From contig CM000434.1 of the NCBI GenBank assembly GCA_000165345.1, positions 576,001-640,000 of the forward strand: 64,000 bases of DNA, in the 5' to 3' direction. The notes below the pieces were generated by a model. The model did not search any database. It was not told the DNA's origin and saw only the letters and a program-made list of their open reading frames with translations. This document shows positions 3,571-61,959 of the stretch, in pieces; the first letter of the stretch is position 1; the number at the start of each line of letters is the position of its first letter. The position numbers and the translations under genes are program-made.

Positions 3571-3847
3571 GCGCACTAACTTATTAATACTTTATATATA
3601 TTTAAATTGTTGGCAAAATTAAATGCTTAATTATAAGGTACTAACTACCAAATTTTTTTCTATACATTGTAATGAACTTAATATTTCAATATCACATATT
3701 AGAAAGCCGGACCTGAAGTAGTTTACTTTAATTTTAATTTTTTTTTACCTCGGATTTTTTGTTCGCTTTGTCGCTTACCTCGTACTGCATTTTTACTTTC
3801 GCGCAGTATCTCGATTTATATGTTAATAGTAAATTGAGTTAAAGAAT

Positions 3848-6485: not shown

Positions 6486-6568
6486 GACAGTGTGGCCGAG
6501 TGGTCTAAGGCGTCAGACTTGAAATCTGATGTGGTCTCCACGCGCAGGTTCAAATCCTGCCACTGTCG
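6486..6568 (+). tRNA. tRNA-Ser (anticodon UGA), class II with long variable arm
   Basis: Acceptor stem GACAGTG/CACTGTC is a perfect 7 bp, followed by discriminator G. The anticodon stem TCAGA/TCTGA carries loop CTTGAAA, giving anticodon TGA with U33 and A37. The variable arm is GTGG-TCT-CCAC. The T-arm GCAGG-TTCAAAT-CCTGC has the TTCAAAT loop. A T6 run follows immediately (Pol III terminator). Confidence 0.9.
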
Positions 6569-11235: not shown

Positions 11236-11331
11236 TCAAATTGATTTTTTTTATTAACAAAGCTAAATTACAAAAAAAAAAAAAAAAATATGCAAAAAAC
11301 TTCTAATTTAGAGAATTAAGTACTCATATAG

Positions 11332-11934
11332 TCAGTCAGTCATACCTGGTACTTTATTTATTGGTTTTCTACGTCTAACTTGTTTGCTTTTAGGTTTATT
11401 TGAGCTTTTCTCTGTTTCCTCGCTTCCTACACTTGTTAATGAAGCTTCAGTGTAGGATCTTTTTGATTTTTTATCTCCAACAACTTTCCAACCTCCTGAA
11501 TCATTCTTATCTATTTCAAATGATAAGCCTTGTATATGTTTTGTTGACGGAACAAATTGTTCACTCTTTTCAGGAATTTGTTTTTCCTCGTCCTCGCTTC
11601 CTTCAGTATCTAAAGGCGGAATAAATGGCTTTGATAGAGTTTTTTTTTGATTAGATTTGGAACTTTGCTGCACGATCTGTTGAGGTTCTTTATTATATTT
11701 CTGTTTATTATTCCCCTTCTTTTTATTTTGTTTCTTGACCTAATTAAATAATTCGAGTCAATTTGCTAGTTTAAATAAACACTTTAAACTCACCTTCTTC
11801 TTTGTTAACTCAGCATAGCAGATAAAAGGAAACACAATTGAGAGTGTAATCAAAGTAAAAGAAATAAAAATGGCAGTGGGGTTGCCTACTGAAAGATTTT
11901 CTCTAATTAATTTAATCAAATTTACGTCAAGCAT
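11332..11934 (-). CDS. Small two-exon gene encoding a ~185-aa signal-anchor / Lys-rich protein
   Basis: The ORF track reports only 11332..11673, starting at a GTG. That frame stays open upstream to an in-frame TAG at the string TTAATTAG|GTC, which is acceptor-like. 44 nt further up on the minus strand is a canonical donor GAAGAAG|GTGAGT. This gives an intron at 11750..11793 and exon 1 at 11794..11934, starting at the ATG at 11934. Exon 1 encodes MLDVNLIKLIRENLSVGNPTAIFISFTLITLSIVFPFICYAELTKKK; exon 2 is 11332..11749. The 44-nt intron length matches intron 2 of the MOD5 gene in this window. Confidence 0.4.
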
Positions 11935-12104
11935 TATTAATAAAATCTTAAATAAAAAAAAAAAAAAATCTTTCCGCCAATAATTATTCAGGGGTGAAAT
12001 TTCAAAATCGGAAAAATCAATTTAATTGCGAACCAAATTGTAGGGAAGATTAATGTGATAAATTAAAAGCATTACTCAAACTAAGTTGCTAATACTAAAT
12101 TCCA

Positions 12105-13431: not shown

Positions 13432-13899
13432 TTAACTTACTATCTGGTTATTTCTTAAATCGGCAATTTTTTTTGTAGCAAAAAGTCTTCGAATATCACC
13501 ATTTAAGAATAATAATGAAAGGCAGGTCAATGCAACAACAAAGTCAAATACATTATTTACTTTGTTAAAAAATCTTTTTTTCATTAAGAATAGTTTAATT
13601 ATTACTTCAAATGTCAAGGTTAGTGTTATAATTGTTTCCAGGAAAATAGAAAATCTACTTCCTGATTGAGCCCTAAACAAGCCACTGAAAAGAACCAAGA
13701 TGTTTAATAAAAAAATTCCAAGGTAGAGATATTTTGAAAACTCAGAATAGTATAATCTTTTAACTATTGTAATAGCCCTTTCCTCACATGTTAAATTTGA
13801 AGCCCAAAATGAAAACCCTTGATCTCTGGAGCTTCCGTTAATTTCAAAGTTGTGAAAATCGGTACTAGTAAGTCCTCCAGGGTATCTATACATATCCAT
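13432..13899 (-). CDS. Hypothetical small membrane protein (2-3 predicted TM helices)
   Basis: 155-aa ORF with an ATG start. Hydrophobic segments LYLGIFLLNILVLFSGLF, IFLETIITLTLTFEVIIKLFLM and FDFVVALTCLSLLFL. No recognisable family. Confidence 0.35.
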   Translation of the reverse strand: MDMYRYPGGLTSTDFHNFEINGSSRDQGFSFWASNLTCEERAITIVKRLYYSEFSKYLYLGIFLLNILVLFSGLFRAQSGSRFSIFLETIITLTLTFEVIIKLFLMKKRFFNKVNNVFDFVVALTCLSLLFLNGDIRRLFATKKIADLRNNQIVS

Positions 13900-13978
13900 T
13901 ATAATTTGGAACTATATTCATAATTCGAGGAAAAAAAAACACGATTGTAATTAATACATGAAATAATTGGTAAACTTT

Positions 13979-13986
13979 ATGGCGCC
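13979..13986. promoter_or_regulatory. E2F-like box TTTATGGCGCC in the divergent promoter between the 13432..13899 (-) and 14100..14957 (+) genes
   Basis: GGCGCC core with a 5' T-run. It is 80 bp upstream of the minus-strand ATG. Confidence 0.4.
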
Positions 13987-14099
13987 TTAATGATTAATTG
14001 AATTACGAATCATTATGAACTCTTATTAATGCAATTTATTCCATAAATGTATTCATTATTGATTTGTATAAAATTCAATTTTATTAGGTTTAAGTTATA

Positions 14100-14971: not shown

Positions 14972-16376
14972 ATGTGTTTTATTTCATTGAATTCGTATAT
15001 TAAAGATGTCCCAGTTATTTTCATTTTTGGTACAACAGGTAGATTAACTTATTACATTCAATAAGGCTTAAATAACTTTTTTAAATCTTTGTTATTTCTA
15101 TAATGTGTAGCTTCTGGCAAAACTCGTTTATCTATAGATATCTGGAAATATCTTGACAAAAAAGTATGTTTATTCAATTCATATAGAAAACCATATTTTC
15201 TTTTTAGGGATTTAAATCAGAAATAATAAATTGCGACTCAATGCAACTATACAAAGGCTTTGATATTGGAACTGCTAAAGTATCCAAAGAAATTCGTAAT
15301 AGAATCCCTCATCACCTATTAGATGTTTTTGATATTGATGAAGATTGTACAGCCTCCAAATATATCAGTATAGCAGTACCAATAGTAAGTTGTGATTTAA
15401 AAGTAAATTCAGTGCATTTATATCACATATAGATCGATAGATTGATCAGCGAAAATGTTACTCCAATTATTGTTGGTGGCACTCACATGTACCTTAAAGC
15501 GTTGATTTGGAAGTCTATTATTGACTCAGAAACATGTAGTAGCGTAAATCCTTCAATTAAAGATGAAGAATACTCAAACTTCACAAACGAGGAGTTGCTT
15601 GAACAGCTTTCGAAGATTGACCCTGAAAGAGCATTGTCATTAAATATAAATGACCGACGAAAAATAATCAGAGGGATAGAGGTAAATTTTTATAAATATT
15701 TATTAATCACAGTTAAGTAGATTCATAGATTTATAACACAAACGGGTTAACATTTACAGAGTTAAAGAAAATTCATCCATACAAAGTTAGATACAACAAT
15801 AGTGTATTATTTTGGGTAAGAAATAACAATATAAGAGAATGCATAGATATAAGAATAAATGAAATGATTAATGTAAGTTGCAATTCAGCGTCATATTTAA
15901 ATTTGAACATTCTTCCATAGGATGGATTATTAAAAGAGGTTTTTTTACTTAAGGAGAGGTTATTAACTTGTAATAAATATATTGGTTTATTACAAGGAAT
16001 AGCCTACAAAGAATTCATAGATATTCTCGACAAAAAAACAAAAATAGAAGACATTTCCGAAGAAGAACTCAATATATGTATTGAAAATTTGCGTATAAAG
16101 ACGTTTCAATACAGTAAGAGACAAGAGAAATTCATTAAAAAACATATAATTAATCGCGGATTAAATGTAAATATATTAGAATTTGATGGTGAAGTATCAG
16201 ATAGTCAGAAATTGGAACTACTTGAATTTAATTTTCAAAGTACTTCAATTATTTATAAATACTTGTCTAAATTATTTAATTTAAAGAATAACTCTGAAAG
16301 CAAACAAGTTTATTCATCTTGGGAAAAGTCAGTGTTAACTCGCGCATTCATGATTCTGGATAAAAAATTAAGTTAA
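14972..16376 (+). CDS. MOD5: tRNA dimethylallyl (isopentenyl) transferase, MiaA/MOD5 family; 6 exons
   Basis: Exons are 14972..15038, 15111..15163, 15208..15384, 15433..15681, 15729..15872 and 15921..16376. Introns are 72, 44, 48, 47 and 48 nt. Their donors are GTAGAT, GTATGT, GTAAGT, GTAAAT and GTAAGT; all acceptors are TAG. The spliced protein reads [66 protein letters not shown]...RIPHHLLDV...[15 protein letters not shown]...IRGIEIYNTNGLTFTEL...PYKVRYNNSVLFW...LQGIAYKEF...FQYSKRQEKFIKK. Across those segments it matches the MiaA/Mod5 consensus: P-loop GTTASGKT, DSMQx[20 protein letters not shown], GY(K/R)E and AKRQ.TW. The ORF track shows only three fragments: 15241..15432, 15442..15720 and 16089..16376. 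Confidence 0.75.
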
Positions 16377-17500: not shown

Positions 17501-18029
17501 TATTATTGGAATATATTAATTCATATCAACATTTACATGTATATGCATTTATTTAAATGAAATTAGTACTAACATTTATTTATTTATTTCCAATTATTGA
17601 CTAATGCGCCTTTAAAAATTATTAAAGTAAAATAAAAATTAAAAAAAAATTCTTTGAATATAGAAAGATAAACCCAATTTTCAAAATAAACCTTAGATTT
17701 CAGGAAGAAAAATTGAGATTTGAATTGAGTTAATCTTGTATGAAAAAGTAAGCAGGAATAAATATCTTTGTGAGTACAAGCTACATCAAAAAAAAAAAAA
17801 AAAGAAGATGCAGTCCAGTTCACAAAATAAGGTCGGTAATAACAATTTTCAAGGAAAAATGAATTTCTTGAGTAGATAAAAATTATTATAACTTTTACAT
17901 TAATCAAAATAAAATAAGTGACAAATTTACCGCCTGCTTAAACGCCCCATACTAAAAAAGAAAGAAAATCAAATTCTTAATTTATTACTGTGGGTTTGAA
18001 AAAAATCATTCCTCTAATAGAAACCCATT

Positions 18030-22694: not shown

Positions 22695-22980
22695 GTTTCT
22701 TCTAATAAGTCTAGCTATTTGAAATAATCGTACAGTTGGTATTCTATTTTTTTAATAAATAAATATCTTTCAAAAAAATATATTTTATATGGGAAAAATT
22801 ACAATTCAGTTTTCAAGAATATTGAATTAATAGCCAACAATTTCAATATTATTGAATTCTATCCTTCATAGACCCAATAATATTTAAAATAATTTTTTTT
22901 GACTTTAAATTTAACACGTCAGTAGGATGTGCTGCTGCCACAAGACTCAAACAAATTGCATGCAAAAATTCCCCACATTT

Positions 22981-22996
22981 AGCGCCAAATGGCGCG
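22981..22996. promoter_or_regulatory. Palindromic double E2F-like box AGCGCCAAATGGCGCG in the divergent MORN1 / 23477 promoter
   Basis: GCGCCA-AA-TGGCGC is a perfect 6-bp-arm inverted repeat. It is ~290 bp upstream of the MORN1 ATG. Confidence 0.45.
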
Positions 22997-23476
22997 TTAG
23001 TTGCCAACATAGAACAAAACAAAATTTTTAACATAATTAAGTAAAGTTAATATTAAACTACACACAAAAATAATTAAATTTAGGATTTGCCACAATTAAA
23101 ATACTAAGTGATTTAAAAACACCTTCTTTGAAAATACTATTTGAAAGTTTGACTTGCCATTCTATTTTTTTTTCATTTAGTGCTAGTTAGCCTTGATCAT
23201 CATATCTCGTTTTTAGGTTTATGAACAAAGCTGTTCTATTAATATTACTCCTTTACTCGAATACTTAGTGAGAATATTTATGTATATTTTGTTGGTAATT
23301 ATTAAATTAGATTCTATTAAGTTTTTCAATTTTTGGCGCATTAAGTGCTTTTGAATGATAATCTGTTTGAATAGTGAGTTAAACTATATACTATTGAAAA
23401 AGAGTATTTTGCTGAGTTAAATTTAGACATTAATCATCTAAAATAATCTGTAATCTACTCAATTTTGTAGCAGGAT

Positions 23477-28026: not shown

Positions 28027-29217
28027 ACAAGCCCATTAAAAAAAAATATCATAAAGTATTTGCCTTCAGTTTGTATTTGGTTTCCCTAAATCAATTACAA
28101 AAATACTATTAGTCAGTCATGTATTCGAGAAAACCACTTTCCATTCCCTGCGTAATATTATTTTCTATTTCAACGAGATTCCCTCAAATTCGCACAATTT
28201 TGCGCTACAAATTAATTCCCAAAATTTCAATTATTGGAATTTGGCAATTGCTAGGAGTAAAAGTCGCAAGCCACAAGTTCAAAGTCACAACTGCCTTAGA
28301 CAAACTAAAGCCCACTTCATCCAAGGCCTGTCATTACAGTGCATTAGTCCTAATCATTTCTACACTATACTAGTCAATTTGAATAGGTATTACGAATGAG
28401 CTAGAAGAATAATAAGGCTAGTAAGGAAATTAACAATTTCCAATAAACAATAAAGTGAAATAAACGCTTTCCTTCTCATTCAAAGTCGAGAAGACAGATC
28501 TTCAAATATGAACTAGCCAATAAGAATAATATAGTAACAGGAGAAATTAGCCAAAACTAAAATATGAGAAGTGTGTTTCTTACAAAATACTTCAACTTAG
28601 ATACCAGTACATATTGTTCCGACCTTTCAATACAAATATCCTCGACCAAATTTGCACGATATCTTTCTCTGATTTTATTTAAAAGAAATAAATTTTGAAA
28701 TGCGTGTCTTTCCCGCTCGATACCTATTCTGGAGACGCGAGGCGTATTTAGAAATGTTATACTTTAAGAAATAGTAAAAAGGCAAAAAGAATTACTAATA
28801 TTAGATAGGATAGTTAAAAAGAGAGGGATAGAAACGGAGGGATAGATGTATAGCAATACGTATTAGATAAATAGTGAGCAAATAGTCACAATTAAGTGGC
28901 AGAATGTGAGTGTATACTTTGCTGTGCGGACTGCCATTCACGCAGACAAGTCCAGACAGACCATTGCACAGAGAGCTATTTGTGTTGTGTACAATCTTGT
29001 GCAATATCGGTTGAGTTTTTTTATAATTAATAATATATAGAATATTTATAATAATAATTTAAATAATATATTTTATTTATTATTATTTATATTCTTCGGA
29101 CAACAAAGCTCAATACCAGTTTGTTCTTCAACTCGCTGTCACAGTTTAAAGTACACTACACAGGATTTGAATAATTGAAGCTATTTATCTGTATATTTAT
29201 GAAAGCTTGATAGGCTG

Positions 29218-47523: not shown

Positions 47524-50280
47524 TTAGGAAATTGCAAAAAATAGATCAATAGGCTCGCCCATGTTGGCACAATGTTTGGATAATTCTGTATGATCGCTGA
47601 GTAATTGATCAGAAAATGAGGAAGCAATGTCAGGAAGTTCCACAAAGTCTTGATATTGAGCTGATGTAATAATTGAAAAAACACTAGATGAATCATGCAT
47701 ATTATTTCCAAGTCTAGGGGTTTCTGTTAAGTTTTGTGACTCTATTAGACTCTCTCCATTATCATCTACTAAACCGTCTCTAGAGATATTTGAGTCGTTG
47801 TGACTATCACAGCCATGAATAAGTTTTTCTTCTGAACAGCTTCTAATTCCAGCCTCTCTTGAAATATGTTCTTCATCATCTATTTGCCCCTCTTCCACAA
47901 TTCTTAATGGTGAATTGCAATGGAAAGACATGGATAAATGTTGTAAAGGAGATATCGAATTTAGTACAACATCCAAATTCTTGTGAAAAGGATCCAAATG
48001 ATCAGTATCTCTTTCTGAAATTGTGTTGTTACCTTCAAGAGCCTTAAGTAGAGCTTGTAGTTCGCTTGAATACATTAGAAGATGCTGTTGGATTGCCAAA
48101 TATAAAGCTTTATGGTATAATATTGTCCTTTTAGAATTAATTACTTCTGAAGTTTGTTTTTTGTTTAAAATGTCCGAATTCGTTTCTTTACAGTTATACA
48201 ATCGATCTGAAGACTCCTCTAAACGAGAATTTTCTACATTTTTTTGTATATTCAGATATTCTTGTACTACAGATGATTTGACAATCAGTTTAGTGACTCC
48301 TGGAATATTTCCATCCAACCAGCTTACATATAACCTGTTTAGACTTTCTATAGGAATTGATCTGACTAGATCCCAAATAAAGTTTGAGGAATATCCTTGA
48401 CTTGATGCTTGCTCAAATTCCATACCAAGCTCAAGTTCCAATTCTTCAATCGATTCATCTTGAGATCTTTCGCTGAACTTTTCATTTGTAATTATGGAGC
48501 TGTTATTCTCGCCTTCTTCTGATAAAAACATTCTTTTTCGTGGGAATTCATGCTCCTCCTCCTCAAAGAAGATCTGCTTTGGTTTTGATTTTGGCCTTCC
48601 TCTTCCCCTACTCTTCTTAGTACTTTTACAAAAAATTGAACCTTGATTTAGTGCTTGCATTTCTGCTGCTGAGTCATTGCATTCGCTGGAGCTTGAACTA
48701 CGAACACAATCTACATTATTTATTCCTGAATTATCAATACAACCATCATCTTCGATGAAATCTCGCTTTTGAAGATTCAAATCTTCCAACACTTGATTTG
48801 AGTTTATTTGTAAGTTTTCTTCATTCATATTTCTCTCAGTATTATTTGTAAGCAGTGAAACCTCTGGAACCGGGTTTTTTTTTAAAGCTCTTTCCTCAAA
48901 GCCATGTATTTTTGGAGTTATATATTCAAATTGTCCATTGGACTTTTTCCCTCTATATCTCCACTTTTTAATATGGCTTTCTATATCCAATGTTGATACC
49001 CACAACAAACTCCCTAAAGGATATCCTGCATCCAAGTATTCTTCTGGGCACATCTCCATACACCAAACCTTTAAGAGCCTTTTTATTGATTTTAATTTGT
49101 TCATTGATTTTAGCTGGTAATAAAAGTCCATCAGCCTTTGAGGATTGCTACTTCTTGCTCTTGGATCCAAGTGGTATGGTGGATCTACTACAAACATAAA
49201 TAATAATACCTTCATAAACACGGGGCCCATGATATTCTTTTGTCTGTGGTGATTCAAAACATCAACTTTATGACAACCATTCAGTTGAAGCTTCTTATCA
49301 AAGAAATAGTATTTCCCTCCTCCTCCACTCTTTAATGCTCGTTTTTCAGTACAAAATGCTAAAAACCCAGAATTTTGCTTTGAAACACAATTTACAAAGT
49401 AGTTCTCAAACTCTTCTATATTCTTCTCTTTCCCTAAATCGTCGATACTTTGTACTATTGGAATTGGGCACCTATTTGGAGCATCCCTCACTATTTTGAA
49501 GATCTCTATCACGCTAGGAACAAGCTTTAAGTAACATGTTCGACTTTTTGTAAACTCAAGCATTAGATTTGTCTTTAGAATATCTAGATACTCATTGTCC
49601 ATATATCTAGAGATATCTTTCGGCTCAGATGTTCCCTCTGAACGCATCTCTTTAAAGACAGTATCTGTAACATTGTATATTGAAACAGAAGATGTACTAC
49701 TTGAGTAGTTTGAAATCTGTCTATTCAAATTGATTTTTTCACTTGGAAAATTCGAGCAGCATTGTGTCTGAATGTTTGATATTTCTTGATTCCTTTCGTT
49801 TGCCTTATTTTCACTATCCAATAGAAACTTTGAACTAATTATTTGACCTTGCATTTCTTGACAACCGATCTTTTCTTCACTTTGAAACATATCATCAGCA
49901 TTATTATTATAGAAATTATAGCTAAAGATCCCATTTCTATCATTACTATGCGAAAGATCATCATCATGAATTATATTCTCTGACCATCCTAGCATTCCAA
50001 TACTATTGTTTATCAAGCAAGGAATATTCTCAGAAATTACCTTTTCTTCTTCTGAATTTCCTTCAGTACAAATAAGGTTTCTTCCCTCTTTTACCTTGTT
50101 ATATATAGAATTGGGTATCATCCTCTTATTACTATTTAATAAGGGAGAGCTTACCTCATGTAAAGACGCCGGAGAAAGTGTTGAGGGTGTCATTGGAGCC
50201 TTGTTCTGTCCATCATCATGCCAAAACAAGAATGGTGTTTTTCTAATATATTCTTCACTGTTGTTAATCATATCCGGCAA
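47524..50280 (-). CDS. MT-A70-like (METTL3/METTL14 family) putative N6-adenosine methyltransferase with an AT-hook
   Basis: 918-aa ORF. Catalytic-motif region: VLLFMFVVDPPYHL (a DPPY motif, analogous to DPPW), followed about 50 aa later by GSLLWVSTLDIESHIKKWRYRGKKSNGQFEYITPKIHG. This aligns with the METTL3 block [36 protein letters not shown]. An AT-hook KKSRGRGRPKSKPK lies further C-terminal. The N-terminal 450 aa are low complexity. The family assignment rests on motif spacing only. Confidence 0.4.
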   Translation of the reverse strand: MPDMINNSEEYIRKTPFLFWHDDGQNKAPMTPSTLSPASLHEVSSPLLNSNKRMIPNSIYNKVKEGRNLICTEGNSEEEKVISENIPCLINNSIGMLGWSENIIHDDDLSHSNDRNGIFSYNFYNNNADDMFQSEEKIGCQEMQGQIISSKFLLDSENKANERNQEISNIQTQCCSNFPSEKINLNRQISNYSSSTSSVSIYNVTDTVFKEMRSEGTSEPKDISRYMDNEYLDILKTNLMLEFTKSRTCYLKLVPSVIEIFKIVRDAPNRCPIPIVQSIDDLGKEKNIEEFENYFVNCVSKQNSGFLAFCTEKRALKSGGGGKYYFFDKKLQLNGCHKVDVLNHHRQKNIMGPVFMKVLLFMFVVDPPYHLDPRARSSNPQRLMDFYYQLKSMNKLKSIKRLLKVWCMEMCPEEYLDAGYPLGSLLWVSTLDIESHIKKWRYRGKKSNGQFEYITPKIHGFEERALKKNPVPEVSLLTNNTERNMNEENLQINSNQVLEDLNLQKRDFIEDDGCIDNSGINNVDCVRSSSSSECNDSAAEMQALNQGSIFCKSTKKSRGRGRPKSKPKQIFFEEEEHEFPRKRMFLSEEGENNSSIITNEKFSERSQDESIEELELELGMEFEQASSQGYSSNFIWDLVRSIPIESLNRLYVSWLDGNIPGVTKLIVKSSVVQEYLNIQKNVENSRLEESSDRLYNCKETNSDILNKKQTSEVINSKRTILYHKALYLAIQQHLLMYSSELQALLKALEGNNTISERDTDHLDPFHKNLDVVLNSISPLQHLSMSFHCNSPLRIVEEGQIDDEEHISREAGIRSCSEEKLIHGCDSHNDSNISRDGLVDDNGESLIESQNLTETPRLGNNMHDSSSVFSIITSAQYQDFVELPDIASSFSDQLLSDHTELSKHCANMGEPIDLFFAIS

Positions 50281-50344
50281 TTATTGCTCAATTGCCTATT
50301 TATTGGAAATAAACAAGTACTTGGATGCCTGTGTAATATATAAT

Positions 50345-50392
50345 ATATCTATAATTAATATATCTATGAATATATATATTAATTATAGATAT
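50345..50392. repeat. Perfect 19-bp AT-rich inverted repeat (atatctataattaatatat / atatattaattatagatat) with a 10-nt spacer
   Basis: Left arm 50345-50363 is the exact reverse complement of right arm 50374-50392. It sits 65-112 bp upstream of the ATG of the MT-A70-like gene on the minus strand. A second imperfect inverted repeat agataactt/aagttatct lies at about 50422-50452. Confidence 0.7.
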
Positions 50393-51931
50393 CAGCTTTA
50401 ATTAGTCAGCTTTATCACCCTTTAGAGATAACTTCTCATCTAAAGTTATCTAGTTTTATGGTTGATTAGTTTGACCTTTAATTATTAATTCAGCTATATT
50501 GTAGAACGCTCCAATTGATTTCATTCCACACATCAAACTATTACAGCGCTTCAGTAAGGCTCATATGACTGTGTTTAACATAAGTAACGCACTATTTAGT
50601 GCCTAATTACCCCCACAACACGACATAGTTTTATTATTAATGCAAATCAATAGGTAAGCATAGAGAATTCAGATTAGACTTATGTTTACTGTCCAACCAA
50701 TATCCAGAGTTTGCACCAATATTTCCCGGTATATTTTCCAGGTTCAACTATTGGAATATTTTAGAACAGTAGTACTACTATTTAACATTACAATGTTTTG
50801 CTATATATTGGAGGTCTACTAGTTTTTAAACAAAAGTGTTTGCCCCATTTAATTCCACTATATACTCCAAAATACTATTTAGTTTTCTGGAGCTCCATGA
50901 TATTATCGATGAGATAATAAATGGGAGATATATCTGGGAACTGAATAGAATATAATTTATAGTCTAATATTAAAAAATTCCAAATTACACCATTCATTTT
51001 TCCAATTACTCCAGATAAATTCTCCAAAATTATTATTAATGTTCCTAAACACGTCTGAAGTGACATAATTAAAGGTTAAAACGTGCATTCTGGAGTACAG
51101 TGGACACAGACTAGACATATTTTAAGACAAAAATGCATCCCAGCACAAAGCTTGCAATAAGCGCCTGCATTTTAAAGTTCAAGTTTGTTGTAATCCCTCG
51201 AAGAAATAATACTCCAGAACTATAATTTATTGGGAGAATTGCGTTTGCAGTACTTATTCTTACTCTGTATCTTATTACTTTCTTATACAAAGTGTCTCAA
51301 ATTATAGGCCTTAAAATATAAGCGGTCTGAATCTGACACAGAATGAACTGGGTTGCATTTTGAAATAAAAAAAAAATTCTATGATTAAAAAATAGTATAG
51401 TAATTTATGTGTTGTTAGGTAAAATGTTTCTAGTGAGAATTGAATGAATTCACGGAGAAATATGGTATTTTGGGCATTTCGAGAGTTAATCTCCGAGCTC
51501 GTCTTATTGTATGAATAAGGAGAACAAAGGCAATGAGAGAAAGTCAGCATAATGGGAACCTGTCATAGTATTTTTTCTAGAAAACAAGTAAAAATTTGAC
51601 GATATATGGACAAGTTATCGTGAAATTCAAGGTATACCTAACAAAAACAAAAAGTTTAAAGATCTACAAGGTGCAACCACCTTTTTTCACAAAAGAAAAA
51701 CCCTAAAATACGCTTCCTGCGGAACTAATAGTATCTATGTATGTGTGACTAAATTCGCTTTTTTATTATCGTTACTCAAACTCAAATCGTAGAAAGTTCG
51801 GATTTAACATAGGAAATTTGCTACTCTCTTTCTTCTCTTAGAATATGTCTACGTCTCTAGTATTTATCTAGGCTGGCATGGCGGGGTCCCGGGAAATAAA
51901 GATAAATTGTAAATGATAAAAAAAGGAAAAA

Positions 51932-52909: not shown

Positions 52910-53649
52910 TTTTTTTTCAAATTACCAAACTAATTAATTATCTAGTGTGGCGGGCTACTCATAGCTTCTTTTTCCCCCCCCTAAAAAAATGGGGAAACCT
53001 TTTCGCGAGAAAAGTCCTAAATTAAGGAAAAGTAAGTTAAAATATAGAACAATTAGACTCAATTAATGGAGATTAATGTTTTAATTAATTTGTTTCAAGT
53101 AATCCGTATATATATACATATATATATTTTTAAATTATAAACACAATTTTTTATTATTAGTGTAACCAGAGAATTTTTTTTTTGCATGCGCTGAAAAGCA
53201 AATAAAAAGTAGCACTGCCAACACTTCACACAAATCCAAAATTAAATATTGGAAAATAAAATTAAGAAAAAAATTCAATTTGTTTAATTTTTTATATTGT
53301 TTGTCAATAAATTTGCAAATTTGTGTAATTGCATGCGCCAATGATAATACTGTAAATTCAAAGTTTAGCTAACTATTTTATTTACATAAGAATAAAGCAT
53401 TTAAGGAGATTGTGTGATAGAGGCAGTAAATAAAGTTAAAGGCCCAGTTAGATTTCCAAGGGAACAAAATAAGTTTTATAATACATTTTTTTAAAAATAC
53501 ATTCTACAAGTTGAGTATTTATGCTCGCTTTGAAATACATGCTCGCTTGAAAGAGGACACGCCCACCAAACTCTGAGCGCAGAATTTAATTTTTTGGGAA
53601 ATTCTCATATAATGCTAAGTTGGTAAATTTGAGGGGAAAATAGCAAATT

Positions 53650-58805: not shown

Positions 58806-60071
58806 TTATCGGATGTTTGGAACAACTGCATATCCAAAGACTTGTCTTCCTGGAGGTGGCTGCATAGGTGGTTGGTTTTGAGGAATAATTGGAGCTCTGC
58901 TATTATATGGCGGATTTTGAGGGGCATTCGGTGTGCCAGGAGGTGGGATGAGTGGCATATTTCCATGATTCCTGTTTGCACCGGTAGCTCCGCAGAAGCA
59001 AAAACCTCCAATAATGCAACTAATTATAAGGATAATAACAATGACTGAGATAGTCAATGGGCCGATGAATGAATTCTTATTATCTGATCCATTGTAGTTT
59101 TTATTCATGTACTCAAAATCGCCATTATCTCTAGTTTGAGGGGGCATTTGAGGAGCTTGAGGTGGAACCTGAGGTGGAACTTGAGGTGGGCCTTGAGTAG
59201 GGAATCTAGGAATCTGAGGTGGTGTAACATAACCAGGATGCCCAGGCATTTGTGGTACTTGCATTGGAGCATATAATGGCGCAATACTTGGCTGTGCAAT
59301 AATAACAGGTTGGATGTGCCTATTAACAACTTCAACTCGTTTAAGTTTATTAGCCTTGCTATCTTTGTTTTTTCTAACTTTTTTCTGATGATGACTAACA
59401 ACCTTATACTCCTCTCTTTCTCCGCTTTTATTAATAATATAATATCTCTTCCCAATCTCGCTTCTCCTAGCATTTCTATCTTTAGTGCATTTAACTCTAT
59501 TCTTTTTCGACTCGTTGATAATTATAACTCTGCAATCTCCAGTCTTACTTGAATGGTTATGCTTAGAGCAAGAACATGATTCCGAAGTCTTTGAATTTTT
59601 ATCGCTTGATGCCCTTGTATCAGCATTATTCACAAATAAAGTGTTTTCACTCAATTTCAATGTTTCTGTATCCAAAGAAGCTGATACCTTTTGCTCTGAA
59701 TCAATTTTAGTAGCTGGCTCCTCAATTGTTGTATTCCTGGGAATATCGCTAGAGTATATAACACTACTTGATGGAACAAAGCCTAATACGTCTTCATTCC
59801 CTGTTGGAGAATCAGTATATGGATCCTTAATACTATCAGAATCAACTTTACTTTTGGCAGTCTCTTCAATGGGAGAAGGATATTCCGCGTTCATCATGCT
59901 AATTAGTGTACTAATACTAATTCCTGCTTGTTTTGCTTCATCTTCAAGCTCACTAAGGGTAATATTATGTTTTTTACAAAATTGTAAAATTTCTTCTCCG
60001 CTACAGAATAAAAAAATACTTTGAAATAGCCCCAAAAAAATAAACGGCAGTAAAGCCCTCAACGATACCAT
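58806..60071 (-). CDS. Type I membrane glycoprotein (signal peptide, S/T-rich ectodomain, single TM, Pro-rich cytoplasmic tail)
   Basis: 421-aa ORF. Signal peptide: MVSLRALLPFIFLGLFQSIFLFCSG. PQVPPQVPPQAPQMPPQ repeats. TM: LTISVIVIILIISCIIGGFCFCG. C-terminal tail is P/Q/N-rich. Confidence 0.5.
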   Translation of the reverse strand: MVSLRALLPFIFLGLFQSIFLFCSGEEILQFCKKHNITLSELEDEAKQAGISISTLISMMNAEYPSPIEETAKSKVDSDSIKDPYTDSPTGNEDVLGFVPSSSVIYSSDIPRNTTIEEPATKIDSEQKVSASLDTETLKLSENTLFVNNADTRASSDKNSKTSESCSCSKHNHSSKTGDCRVIIINESKKNRVKCTKDRNARRSEIGKRYYIINKSGEREEYKVVSHHQKKVRKNKDSKANKLKRVEVVNRHIQPVIIAQPSIAPLYAPMQVPQMPGHPGYVTPPQIPRFPTQGPPQVPPQVPPQAPQMPPQTRDNGDFEYMNKNYNGSDNKNSFIGPLTISVIVIILIISCIIGGFCFCGATGANRNHGNMPLIPPPGTPNAPQNPPYNSRAPIIPQNQPPMQPPPGRQVFGYAVVPNIR

Positions 60072-60201
60072 CGTTCAAACTGTTATACACTTATTTCGAA
60101 CGAAAATAGCTCAAATTTGTCGAAATTTTATTACAAAGTCGAATTTTATAGATACCTCTTAGATTTAACCTTTTATCCAGGTAAAATTCGACTAATACAT
60201 A

Positions 60202-60229
60202 TGGCGCCATTATAGCAAATGTGGCGCCG
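60202..60229. promoter_or_regulatory. Two TGGCGCC boxes (ATGGCGCCAT and GTGGCGCCGCC) 12 bp apart in the divergent promoter of two membrane-protein genes
   Basis: TGGCGCCA at 60202-60209 and TGGCGCCG at 60222-60229. They lie ~130 bp upstream of the ATG of the 58806..60071 gene. Confidence 0.45.
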
Positions 60230-60839
60230 CCAATTAATGGATTATTTTCTTTCTATTTCATGATTTTGTAGCTTTTGCTATACAATGCTTAAGTACTATT
60301 CATGTTGGTCTAGCTAAGTTAGCTTTGTAGTTAATACCACTCAGAGATTTCTTTCATCATTTGCTTTAAAGACTCTGGTGTGGTTTATTATTAATTACTT
60401 TATGAGTATATAATGTAATTTTGGGCGATTGCACGCCTCAAATAATGTATGATCAAATAAACTGAAATCCTGAAAGCTATGAGTTATCTTCCCTACAAAA
60501 CTTCTAAACTTTACTGGAACTATTGCTTTAGAGCTTCAAAACATGGGGGCTCACCAAACTACTAAAGCTTTTTAAATTCACATAATTTATTTCATAAGAT
60601 TGGTATTTCTTTCTTAAACAATGGAATATATAACTAAAATAACCTTTAAGTGAGTATGTGAACGATTTTTTCTTTACGAGTTTTTTTCTGGTGTGAATGT
60701 AGAATTAAATTTGTATCTACACACAAAAGTCATTTAATTCTATGTATATTTAAGAGGCAGCTTGAGTTAAAATTGGAATAACCAAAATCCAAAATTTGTA
60801 AATTTTAATTGGAATGAGTAAATCATATAGAGCTGTGAA

Positions 60840-61613: not shown

Positions 61614-61959
61614 TATTCTGGAACCTCAGAATGAAAATCATAGCATACAGTAACAAAAACATAGGTGCACAACTATTGATTAAGCAATAGTTACAATTAG
61701 AAAGGTTTAACTCCAATCAAATTATCAAGTAGTTCGGGATTTGAGGTTTTAGTTTAATTAAATATTAAATTTGAGAATTCTTCGAAAATTTAAACCAGCC
61801 ATGCTGAATACTTGTCAATTTTTTGCAAAAAAAAGATCTTAGTGCATCTGCGTCTCAAATTCCAGGCTTAAATTTGGCGGCATGCCTTGGGCCCCCTCAC
61901 CTTAGAGAATTAAATAGGTTCTTTGTGAAAAAGTTTTGTTACTAGGCCTTAAGAATAAT

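Follow-up and report, generated by a model that had tools for sequence, protein, structure and literature searches.

E2F-like boxes in the 5' spacers of a 64-kb stretch of Cryptosporidium parvum chromosome 6

Genes of the window and the four sites first reported

The stretch of DNA analyzed here, 64,000 nucleotides long and called the window below, carries a short GC-rich box, TGGCGC or a close variant, that recurs in the spacers at the 5' ends of its genes. An earlier note, made from the sequence alone, had reported four such E2F-like sites, among them a double box at 60201-60233 that is the focus of this work, and had taken the DNA to come from Cryptosporidium. The origin is borne out: exact protein matches place the window on chromosome 6 of Cryptosporidium parvum Iowa II, from about cgd6_2470 onward, and seven of eight window proteins are identical to Iowa II chromosome 6 entries (CAD985xx, EAK898xx/899xx, CPATCC_002780-002809). 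The QSOX gene is cgd6_2470 and the gene for an Rpr2-domain protein is cgd6_2530. Pfam supports the gene names given earlier, namely QSOX (Evr1_Alr and thioredoxin domains), NOT2 and MORN.

Region classes were drawn from a map of large open reading frames (ORFs): coding DNA (48.7 kb), divergent spacers (5.4 kb) and convergent, 3'-3' spacers (seven, 2.9 kb). A spacer that holds at least one gene 5' end is called 5'-containing; the window has 18 of these, amounting to 10.9 kb. Syntenic loci of other Cryptosporidium taxa were retrieved through orthologues of three window proteins, and gene order is the same in all of them, those of the gastric C. andersoni and C. serpentis included. All four reported sites were found in the sequence, displaced by 0-3 nt at most, and each is flanked by ORFs that point away from each other, the spacers having 21-30% GC.

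The focal pair occupies a spacer of about 770 bp between a minus-strand gene for a 421-residue membrane protein (58806-60071) and a gene for a 257-residue protein. The proximal box, ATGGCGCCAT at 60201-60210, contains the palindromic consensus TGGCGCCA; it lies 131 bp 5' of the ATG of the 421-residue protein gene. At 60202-60209, TGGCGCCA is a full match to the motif form [A/T][C/G]GCGC[G/C][A/T] given in a 2025 review (PMC12246861). Twenty base pairs away, centre to centre, is the distal box, GTGGCGCCGCC at 60221-60231. With an extension to 60233 it becomes the composite GTGGCGCCGCCAA, in which TGGCGCC on the plus strand overlaps TTGGCGG on the minus strand; TGGCGCCG at 60222-60229 fits the same motif form but for the last flank base.

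The pair is conserved while its surroundings have diverged. All five taxa compared, namely C. parvum, C. meleagridis, chipmunk genotype I, C. canis and the Logan assembly SRR31860986, have GGCGCC in the proximal box and GGCGC in the distal one, although in the last two the adjacent protein is only 46-51% identical and most of the spacer cannot be aligned. In the alignment of the focal spacer, 11 of the 12 box-core columns are invariant, compared with 22% of background columns. The boxes stand 18-20 bp apart in all five species, and in three of the five the distal box is a full TGGCGCCA. Such conservation, like the enrichment in 5' spacers described below, accords with a promoter element.

The pair probably serves mainly the 421-residue protein gene and not both flanking genes, because it lies 131-156 bp from the ATG of that gene and more than 600 bp from that of the 257-residue protein gene, and because the latter has invariant CACACA-type blocks of its own 112-152 bp 5' of its ATG. 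These AP2-like blocks, CTGGTGTGAATGT (60688-60700) and TACACACAAAA (60718-60728), are invariant in five species and suggest that the 257-residue protein gene has its own promoter, apart from the E2F pair.

On the sense strand of the 421-residue protein gene (the minus strand), a 13-mer, GTCGAATTTTACC at 60180-60192, lies exactly 10 nt downstream of the proximal box. Both the 13-mer and the 10-nt distance are invariant in five species (L001:2880, L002:2883, L003:2882 and L004:2146 in the loci of the relatives). The 13-mer forms the 5' arm of a predicted hairpin at 60137-60194, whose 3' arm (60137-60148) is an inverted copy about 32 nt downstream; the predicted energy is -16.1 kcal/mol, with z = -2.97. 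Across species 97% of the pair cells remain paired, against 23-51% in slid controls, and each of the seven one-sided changes results in a G-U pair in the sense strand. No compensatory double change was seen in the five-species comparison. The sequence features suggest that a hairpin in the 5' untranslated region (5'-UTR) starts directly after the boxes, or that the 13-mer marks where transcription begins. The 13-mer and the boxes may be parts of the same functional unit.

The three sites outside the focal spacer are conserved across the intestinal clade. The site at 2407-2418, exactly where it was first placed, reads ATGGCGCGAAAA (reverse complement TTTTCGCGCCAT) and matches the canonical TTTSGCGCS. 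It lies 50 bp from QSOX (minus) and 171 bp from NOT2 (plus), and TGGCGCGA at 2408-2415 is a full match to the published form. C. ubiquitum and C. canis retain GGCGCGAAA, which is weakened to AGCGCGAG in C. felis; the C. serpentis spacer has no counterpart box.

The third site, TTTATGGCGCC at 13976-13986, is flanked by the ion-transport-domain gene (minus) at 81 bp and the Rpr2/Rpp21 gene (plus) at 115 bp; only its ATGGCGCC portion (13979-13986) had been noted earlier. Here TGGCGCCT at 13980-13987 is the full match to the published form. TGGCGCC is retained in C. ubiquitum, C. canis and C. felis, and the orthologous spacer of C. andersoni carries a counterpart, ATATGGCGCCTAAT (L008:6015). The ion-transport-domain gene itself (13432-13899) has a 3' intron; its product is 211 residues long in newer annotations, against 155.

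The fourth site, GCGCCAAATGGCGC at 22982-22995, one base from its first placement, lies 288-296 bp 5' of MORN1 on the minus strand. It had been described as a palindrome. The 6-nt inverted arms, GCGCCA and TGGCGC, are indeed perfect, but the central AA is not palindromic, so the site is an inverted pair and no strict palindrome. The sequence TGGCGCGT (22990-22997) matches the consensus in full and AGCGCCA (22981-22987) is a half match; the pair is conserved in C. ubiquitum, C. canis and C. felis. It adjoins a G-box, GTGGGG (22971-22976, minus), and TGCATGCA (22957-22964), and the CCCCAC-N5-GCGCC layout of this promoter is found in C. andersoni too.

A block of about 80 nt abutting this pair (22900-22980), which holds TGCATGCA and the G-box, is near-identical in C. 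parvum, C. ubiquitum, C. canis and C. felis and is much more conserved than the flanking proteins. An ORF of 61 codons overlaps the pair on the minus strand (22849-23034). We judge it to be non-coding, because the block is near-identical in nucleotides across the four species while the flanking proteins are only 43-76% identical.

Distribution of the box in the window

Counted over the whole window, GGCGCC occurs 3 times against 1.0 expected, a number reached in 13 of 100 shuffles and hence not significant, and TGGCGC occurs 11 times against 4.2 expected (0 of 100 shuffles). These whole-window shuffles were replaced by dinucleotide-preserving shuffles done per region class. Within divergent spacers there are 9 copies of TGGCGC where 0.52 are expected (0 of 1000 shuffles), 4 of TTTSSCGC against 0.28 (0 of 1000), 3 of GGCGCC against 0.14 (1 of 1000) and 5 of SGCGCS against 0.31 (1 of 1000). 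Coding DNA has 2 copies of TGGCGC against 3.4 expected, and the seven convergent spacers of the window have none. The earlier note had named a test of its own, a comparison of 5' spacers with 3' spacers and coding sequence after correction for GC content. The 5' excess holds in it, since TGGCGC is in excess in divergent spacers and in neither coding nor convergent DNA.

The same word emerges from an unbiased scan. When the 2080 strand-collapsed 6-mers were all counted in the 5'-containing spacers (10.9 kb), poly-A/T came first, directly followed by TGGCGC (9 against 0.80 expected, Bonferroni-corrected 4e-4) and TGGCGG (8 against 0.71, Bonferroni-corrected 2e-3). If the box family is defined as the 5-mers GGCGC, GCGCG, GGCGG and CCCGC on either strand, it is present in 17 of the 18 5'-containing spacers of the window and in one of the seven convergent ones (Fisher p=2.6e-4). 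In eight other Cryptosporidium taxa a box is found in 47 of 52 5'-containing spacers compared with 3 of 29 convergent spacers, the loci being orthologous and the observations not independent.

The boxes keep no fixed distance or orientation. The nearest ATG is at a median of 132 bp (interquartile range 78-174). A strand bias of TGGCGS toward the nearest gene seemed plausible by eye and was ruled out by the counts, which are 8 of 15 in the window and 15 of 23 in the other loci. Such a lack of strand preference is expected of a site in DNA that is bound by a symmetric dimer.

Beyond the four sites first reported, TGGCGG/CCCGCC variants occur in most other 5' spacers, and several further boxes, absent from the earlier note, can be placed exactly. 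Two of them lie in spacers at 23330 and 53333. The box TTTTTGGCGCAT (23330-23341, plus) is a canonical TTTGGCGC site, 138 bp 5' of a gene for a 927-residue protein (23477, plus); it stands beside the MORN1 site, and its TTTGGCGCA does not vary among the four intestinal-clade species (C. parvum, C. ubiquitum, C. canis and C. felis). At 53333-53342, ATGCGCCAAT (reverse complement ATTGGCGCAT), with GCGCCA at 53335-53340, is situated in the divergent spacer between genes for an FKBP and a poly(A)-polymerase-like protein.

Tandem spacers have boxes as well. One is TTTCGCGC (3797-3804, plus), 46 bp 5' of the HECT ligase ATG, where C. ubiquitum, C. felis, C. canis and C. serpentis have CGCGCA, GCGCGC or GGCGCA at the same position. 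Another is TTTGGCGGC (61872-61880, plus), 80 bp 5' of an RRM-protein gene; C. meleagridis and chipmunk genotype I have its CCGCCAAAT too, on the corresponding strand. The box TTTCCGCCAAT (reverse complement ATTGGCGGAAA) at 11971-11981 is 5' of both the prenyltransferase-alpha gene and the adjacent minus-strand gene; CCGCCA is conserved there in C. ubiquitum, C. canis and C. felis, and C. andersoni has GCGCGA. The divergent spacer between the LUC7 and spm1-like genes holds GCGCC (17606-17610, within AATGCGCCTTTAAAA) and a second box, CCGCC (17930-17934). Both are conserved in C. ubiquitum, C. canis and C. felis, and C. andersoni has GCGCCT. Finally, TTTCCCGC (28709-28716, plus) lies in the spacer between a MYST acetyltransferase gene and a gene for a 692-residue protein, with gtcttTCCCGCTcgatac conserved in C. 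ubiquitum, C. canis and C. felis.

The genes that bear boxes are functionally unrelated. Besides those for the HECT ligase, prenyltransferase alpha, LUC7, MYST acetyltransferase, FKBP, poly(A)-polymerase-like and RRM proteins, they encode ERCC1/Rad10, an MSP-domain protein, an MFS transporter, a DnaJ protein and an RTEL1-like helicase.

A conserved CACGCGCAGG match at 6542, of the CGCGCA type, was considered as a promoter box and rejected as part of a transfer RNA (tRNA) gene. The tRNA gene (6486-6568, plus; 66.5 bits to Rfam RF00005) has the HECT gene on one side and a gene for a 1484-residue protein on the other. It is the sole Rfam match in the window; Rfam finds no RNA family at any box or at 22900-22980.

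A few other observations concern the spacers more generally. Synteny with annotated loci of four other species places two intron-containing genes in spacers that are empty on a simple ORF map, one for a protein of about 182 residues (~11330-11930, minus) and one for a protein with a tRNA isopentenyltransferase (IPPT) domain (~15241-15720, plus). An apparently gene-free spacer of 1.66 kb (50272-51931) has a relatively high GC content (31%) and may hold an unannotated gene or RNA. Within it, a GC-rich stretch, TGGCGGGGTCCCGG at 51879, lies 48 bp from the 3' end of the FKBP gene.

The published E2F motif and its probable reader

The boxes are the already published and much-cited E2F-like motif of Cryptosporidium, and no new principle is involved. 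Oberstaller et al. (2013, PMC3734150) found the E2F motif 5'-TGGCGCCA-3', with the core [C/G]GCGC[G/C], together with GGCGGG, to be the most over-represented upstream motif, which agrees with the GGCGCC-type upstream motif named in the earlier note. According to the same paper, it was Bankier et al. (2003) who first noted the motif, in non-coding sequence of chromosome 6. Mullapudi et al. (2007) described a GGCG core without a positional or orientation rule, in agreement with the counts here. Organism, chromosome, sequence, restriction to upstream or non-coding DNA and the lack of such a rule are all the same, and we see no essential difference. What is added is the conservation of single sites in up to eight other taxa, the enrichment of the TGGCGG variant, which matches that of TGGCGC, and the local layout of the focal promoter.

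We consider it likely that the boxes are this known cis-element, with the consensus TGGCGCCA, the half-site TGGCG[C/G] and the core [C/G]GCGC[G/C], and that it is read by E2F/DP. Among Apicomplexa, E2F/DP genes are reported in Cryptosporidium only (PMC12246861). Their number differs between sources, being two E2F and two DP in one (PMC12246861) and three E2F in another (PMC4117751); the genes are given as cgd1_1560 and cgd6_1430 for E2F and cgd7_3650 and cgd8_1850 for DP (PMC12246861; bioRxiv 10.1101/2025.01.17.633476). The Pfam family of the E2F/DP DNA-binding domain has no match in the 27 large ORFs of the window. In sporozoites the E2F motif dominates the peaks obtained by the assay for transposase-accessible chromatin with sequencing (ATAC-seq), more than half of which are annotated as bidirectional promoters (Xiao et al. 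2025, bioRxiv 10.1101/2025.01.17.633476).

The canonical site of animal and plant E2F/DP is TTTSSCGC, for example TTTCCCGCC or TTTGGCGGG, the structural basis being that of Zheng et al. (1999) as cited in PMC3734150. The boxes share with it the symmetric GCGC core and the promoter-proximal place. It had been claimed that they fit TTTSGCGCS, and this is true of some of them. Canonical-type sequence is present at 2407-2418 (TTTTCGCGCC, reverse complement), 23330-23341 (TTTTTGGCGC), 28709-28716 (TTTCCCGC) and 61872-61880 (TTTGGCGG), as full matches, and also at 3797-3804; it is not present at the focal boxes, at 13976-13986 or in either arm of 22982-22995. Canonical sites mark a subset of genes for the cell cycle and DNA replication, whereas the Cryptosporidium motif marks most genes, in many cases as the T-run-free palindrome TGGCGCCA. 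Of the animal complex, DP1, RPD3 and LIN-53 are retained in C. parvum, while pRB and most of the other partners were not found there (PMC3734150).

Several points weigh against this reading. We found in the literature no electrophoretic mobility shift assay, protein-binding microarray, chromatin immunoprecipitation or mutagenesis for Cryptosporidium E2F/DP, and according to the 2025 review most components are without functional validation (PMC12246861). The T-run of the canonical TTTSGCGC is missing from most boxes, including the focal ATGGCGCCAT and GTGGCGCCGC. A box this widespread is more in keeping with a general promoter element than with a classic regulon of cell-cycle E2F. In the window alone the strict motif is found in 7 of 18 5' spacers and in none of the seven convergent ones (p=0.13), a comparison of limited power given how few and short the convergent spacers are (2.9 kb). 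The counts from the other taxa, too, come from orthologous regions and are not independent of one another.

The main alternative is that the boxes are functional promoter elements read by a factor other than E2F/DP, or that they act structurally, as GC-rich islands that exclude nucleosomes or fix the transcription start. No demonstration of E2F/DP binding is on record (PMC12246861), and the motif occurs in nearly every 5' spacer whatever the function of the gene. It is upstream of clusters whatever the time of their peak, and the expression of E2F does not follow that of ribosomal proteins (PMC3734150). The rigid 10-nt distance between the focal box and the invariant 13-mer is also what one would see in a core-promoter or start-site module. 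Against this stands the closeness of the core to the E2F/DP recognition sequence, canonical TTTCGCGCC and TTTGGCGC instances included, in the only apicomplexan genus reported to retain these proteins. It is the exact bases that are conserved, moreover, and not GC content alone.

The binding motifs reported for AP2 domains are of other sequence (5'-TGCAT-3', CACACA, G-box), and the E2F motif is classed as recognized by non-AP2 proteins (PMC4117751). The ApiAP2 motifs (TGCATGCA, the G-box G[T/C]GGGG and CACACA) resemble the boxes in being short words over-represented upstream in C. parvum, and they co-occur with them here, TGCATGCA and GTGGGG at the MORN1 pair and CACACA-type blocks near the 257-residue protein gene. 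They differ in sequence, and AP2-domain binding was shown for them by protein-binding microarray, the E2F motif not being among those reported as bound (PMC4117751). On balance we regard a reader other than E2F/DP, or a structural role, as unlikely.

The earlier note saw in the boxes an E2F/DP regulon that includes QSOX, NOT2, MORN1 and the two membrane proteins, comparable to the cell-cycle E2F targets of animals and plants. These genes do have strict-consensus boxes, and MORN1 is a cell-division protein in other Apicomplexa. The E2F and DP transcripts, furthermore, peak in early asexual stages (bioRxiv 10.1101/2025.01.17.633476). Such a regulon is too narrow, however. The box family stands next to unrelated housekeeping genes in all but one of the 18 5' spacers, and 161 of the 200 expression clusters, whatever their peak, have the motif upstream (PMC4117751). 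Within the window, cgd6_2470 (QSOX) belongs to published expression cluster 46 and cgd6_2530 (Rpr2) to cluster 13. The motif behaves as a near-general promoter element, and specific co-regulation of the five genes seems improbable to us.

As for chance GC-rich words in AT-rich DNA, for which only the whole-window count of GGCGCC would speak, this explanation is as good as excluded, because the excess is reached in 0-1 of 1000 region-specific shuffles, the 6-mers are significant after Bonferroni correction, and exact bases are kept where the flanking spacer is unalignable and the background columns vary.

A possible mechanism and its meaning for Cryptosporidium

The element is a short, orientation-independent box in double-stranded promoter DNA, typically about 40-300 bp (median about 130 bp) 5' of the start codon of most genes. 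In the likeliest mechanism, its symmetric GCGC core would be recognized by E2F/DP winged-helix heterodimers that are encoded elsewhere in the genome, and the bound heterodimer would nucleate a promoter of open chromatin near the transcription start. The analysis itself shows that the sites exist, that they are enriched at 5' ends, that they have no orientation bias and that they are conserved among species; which protein binds them, how it affects transcription and where the transcripts start are inferences. In the focal spacer, the two consensus boxes, two helical turns apart, would constitute the promoter of the 421-residue membrane-protein gene, and the conserved 13-mer at its fixed 10-nt distance probably marks the start of the transcript.

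A more speculative suggestion can also be made. Nearly all genes could use the E2F-like box as a general core promoter element close to the start site, one that is in some cases built into a rigid composite that couples initiation to post-transcriptional control. The focal promoter would offer one such composite, with two boxes 20 bp apart, then 10 nt, then GTCGAATTTTACC opening a conserved 5'-UTR hairpin. The MORN1 promoter would offer another, with TGCATGCA, the G-box and the E2F pair within 40 bp. We put this forward tentatively, as a possibility and not as what we expect.

Cryptosporidium ranks among the major causes of diarrhoea in children, and little is understood of how its genes are regulated. 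The motif is thought to drive much of its transcription. For this 64-kb stretch the analysis confirms that hardly any 5' spacer is without the published motif and that the motif is under purifying selection across the genus. Two conserved places, the double box at 60201-60233 and the MORN1 composite at 22957-22995, offer themselves for binding and mutagenesis work.

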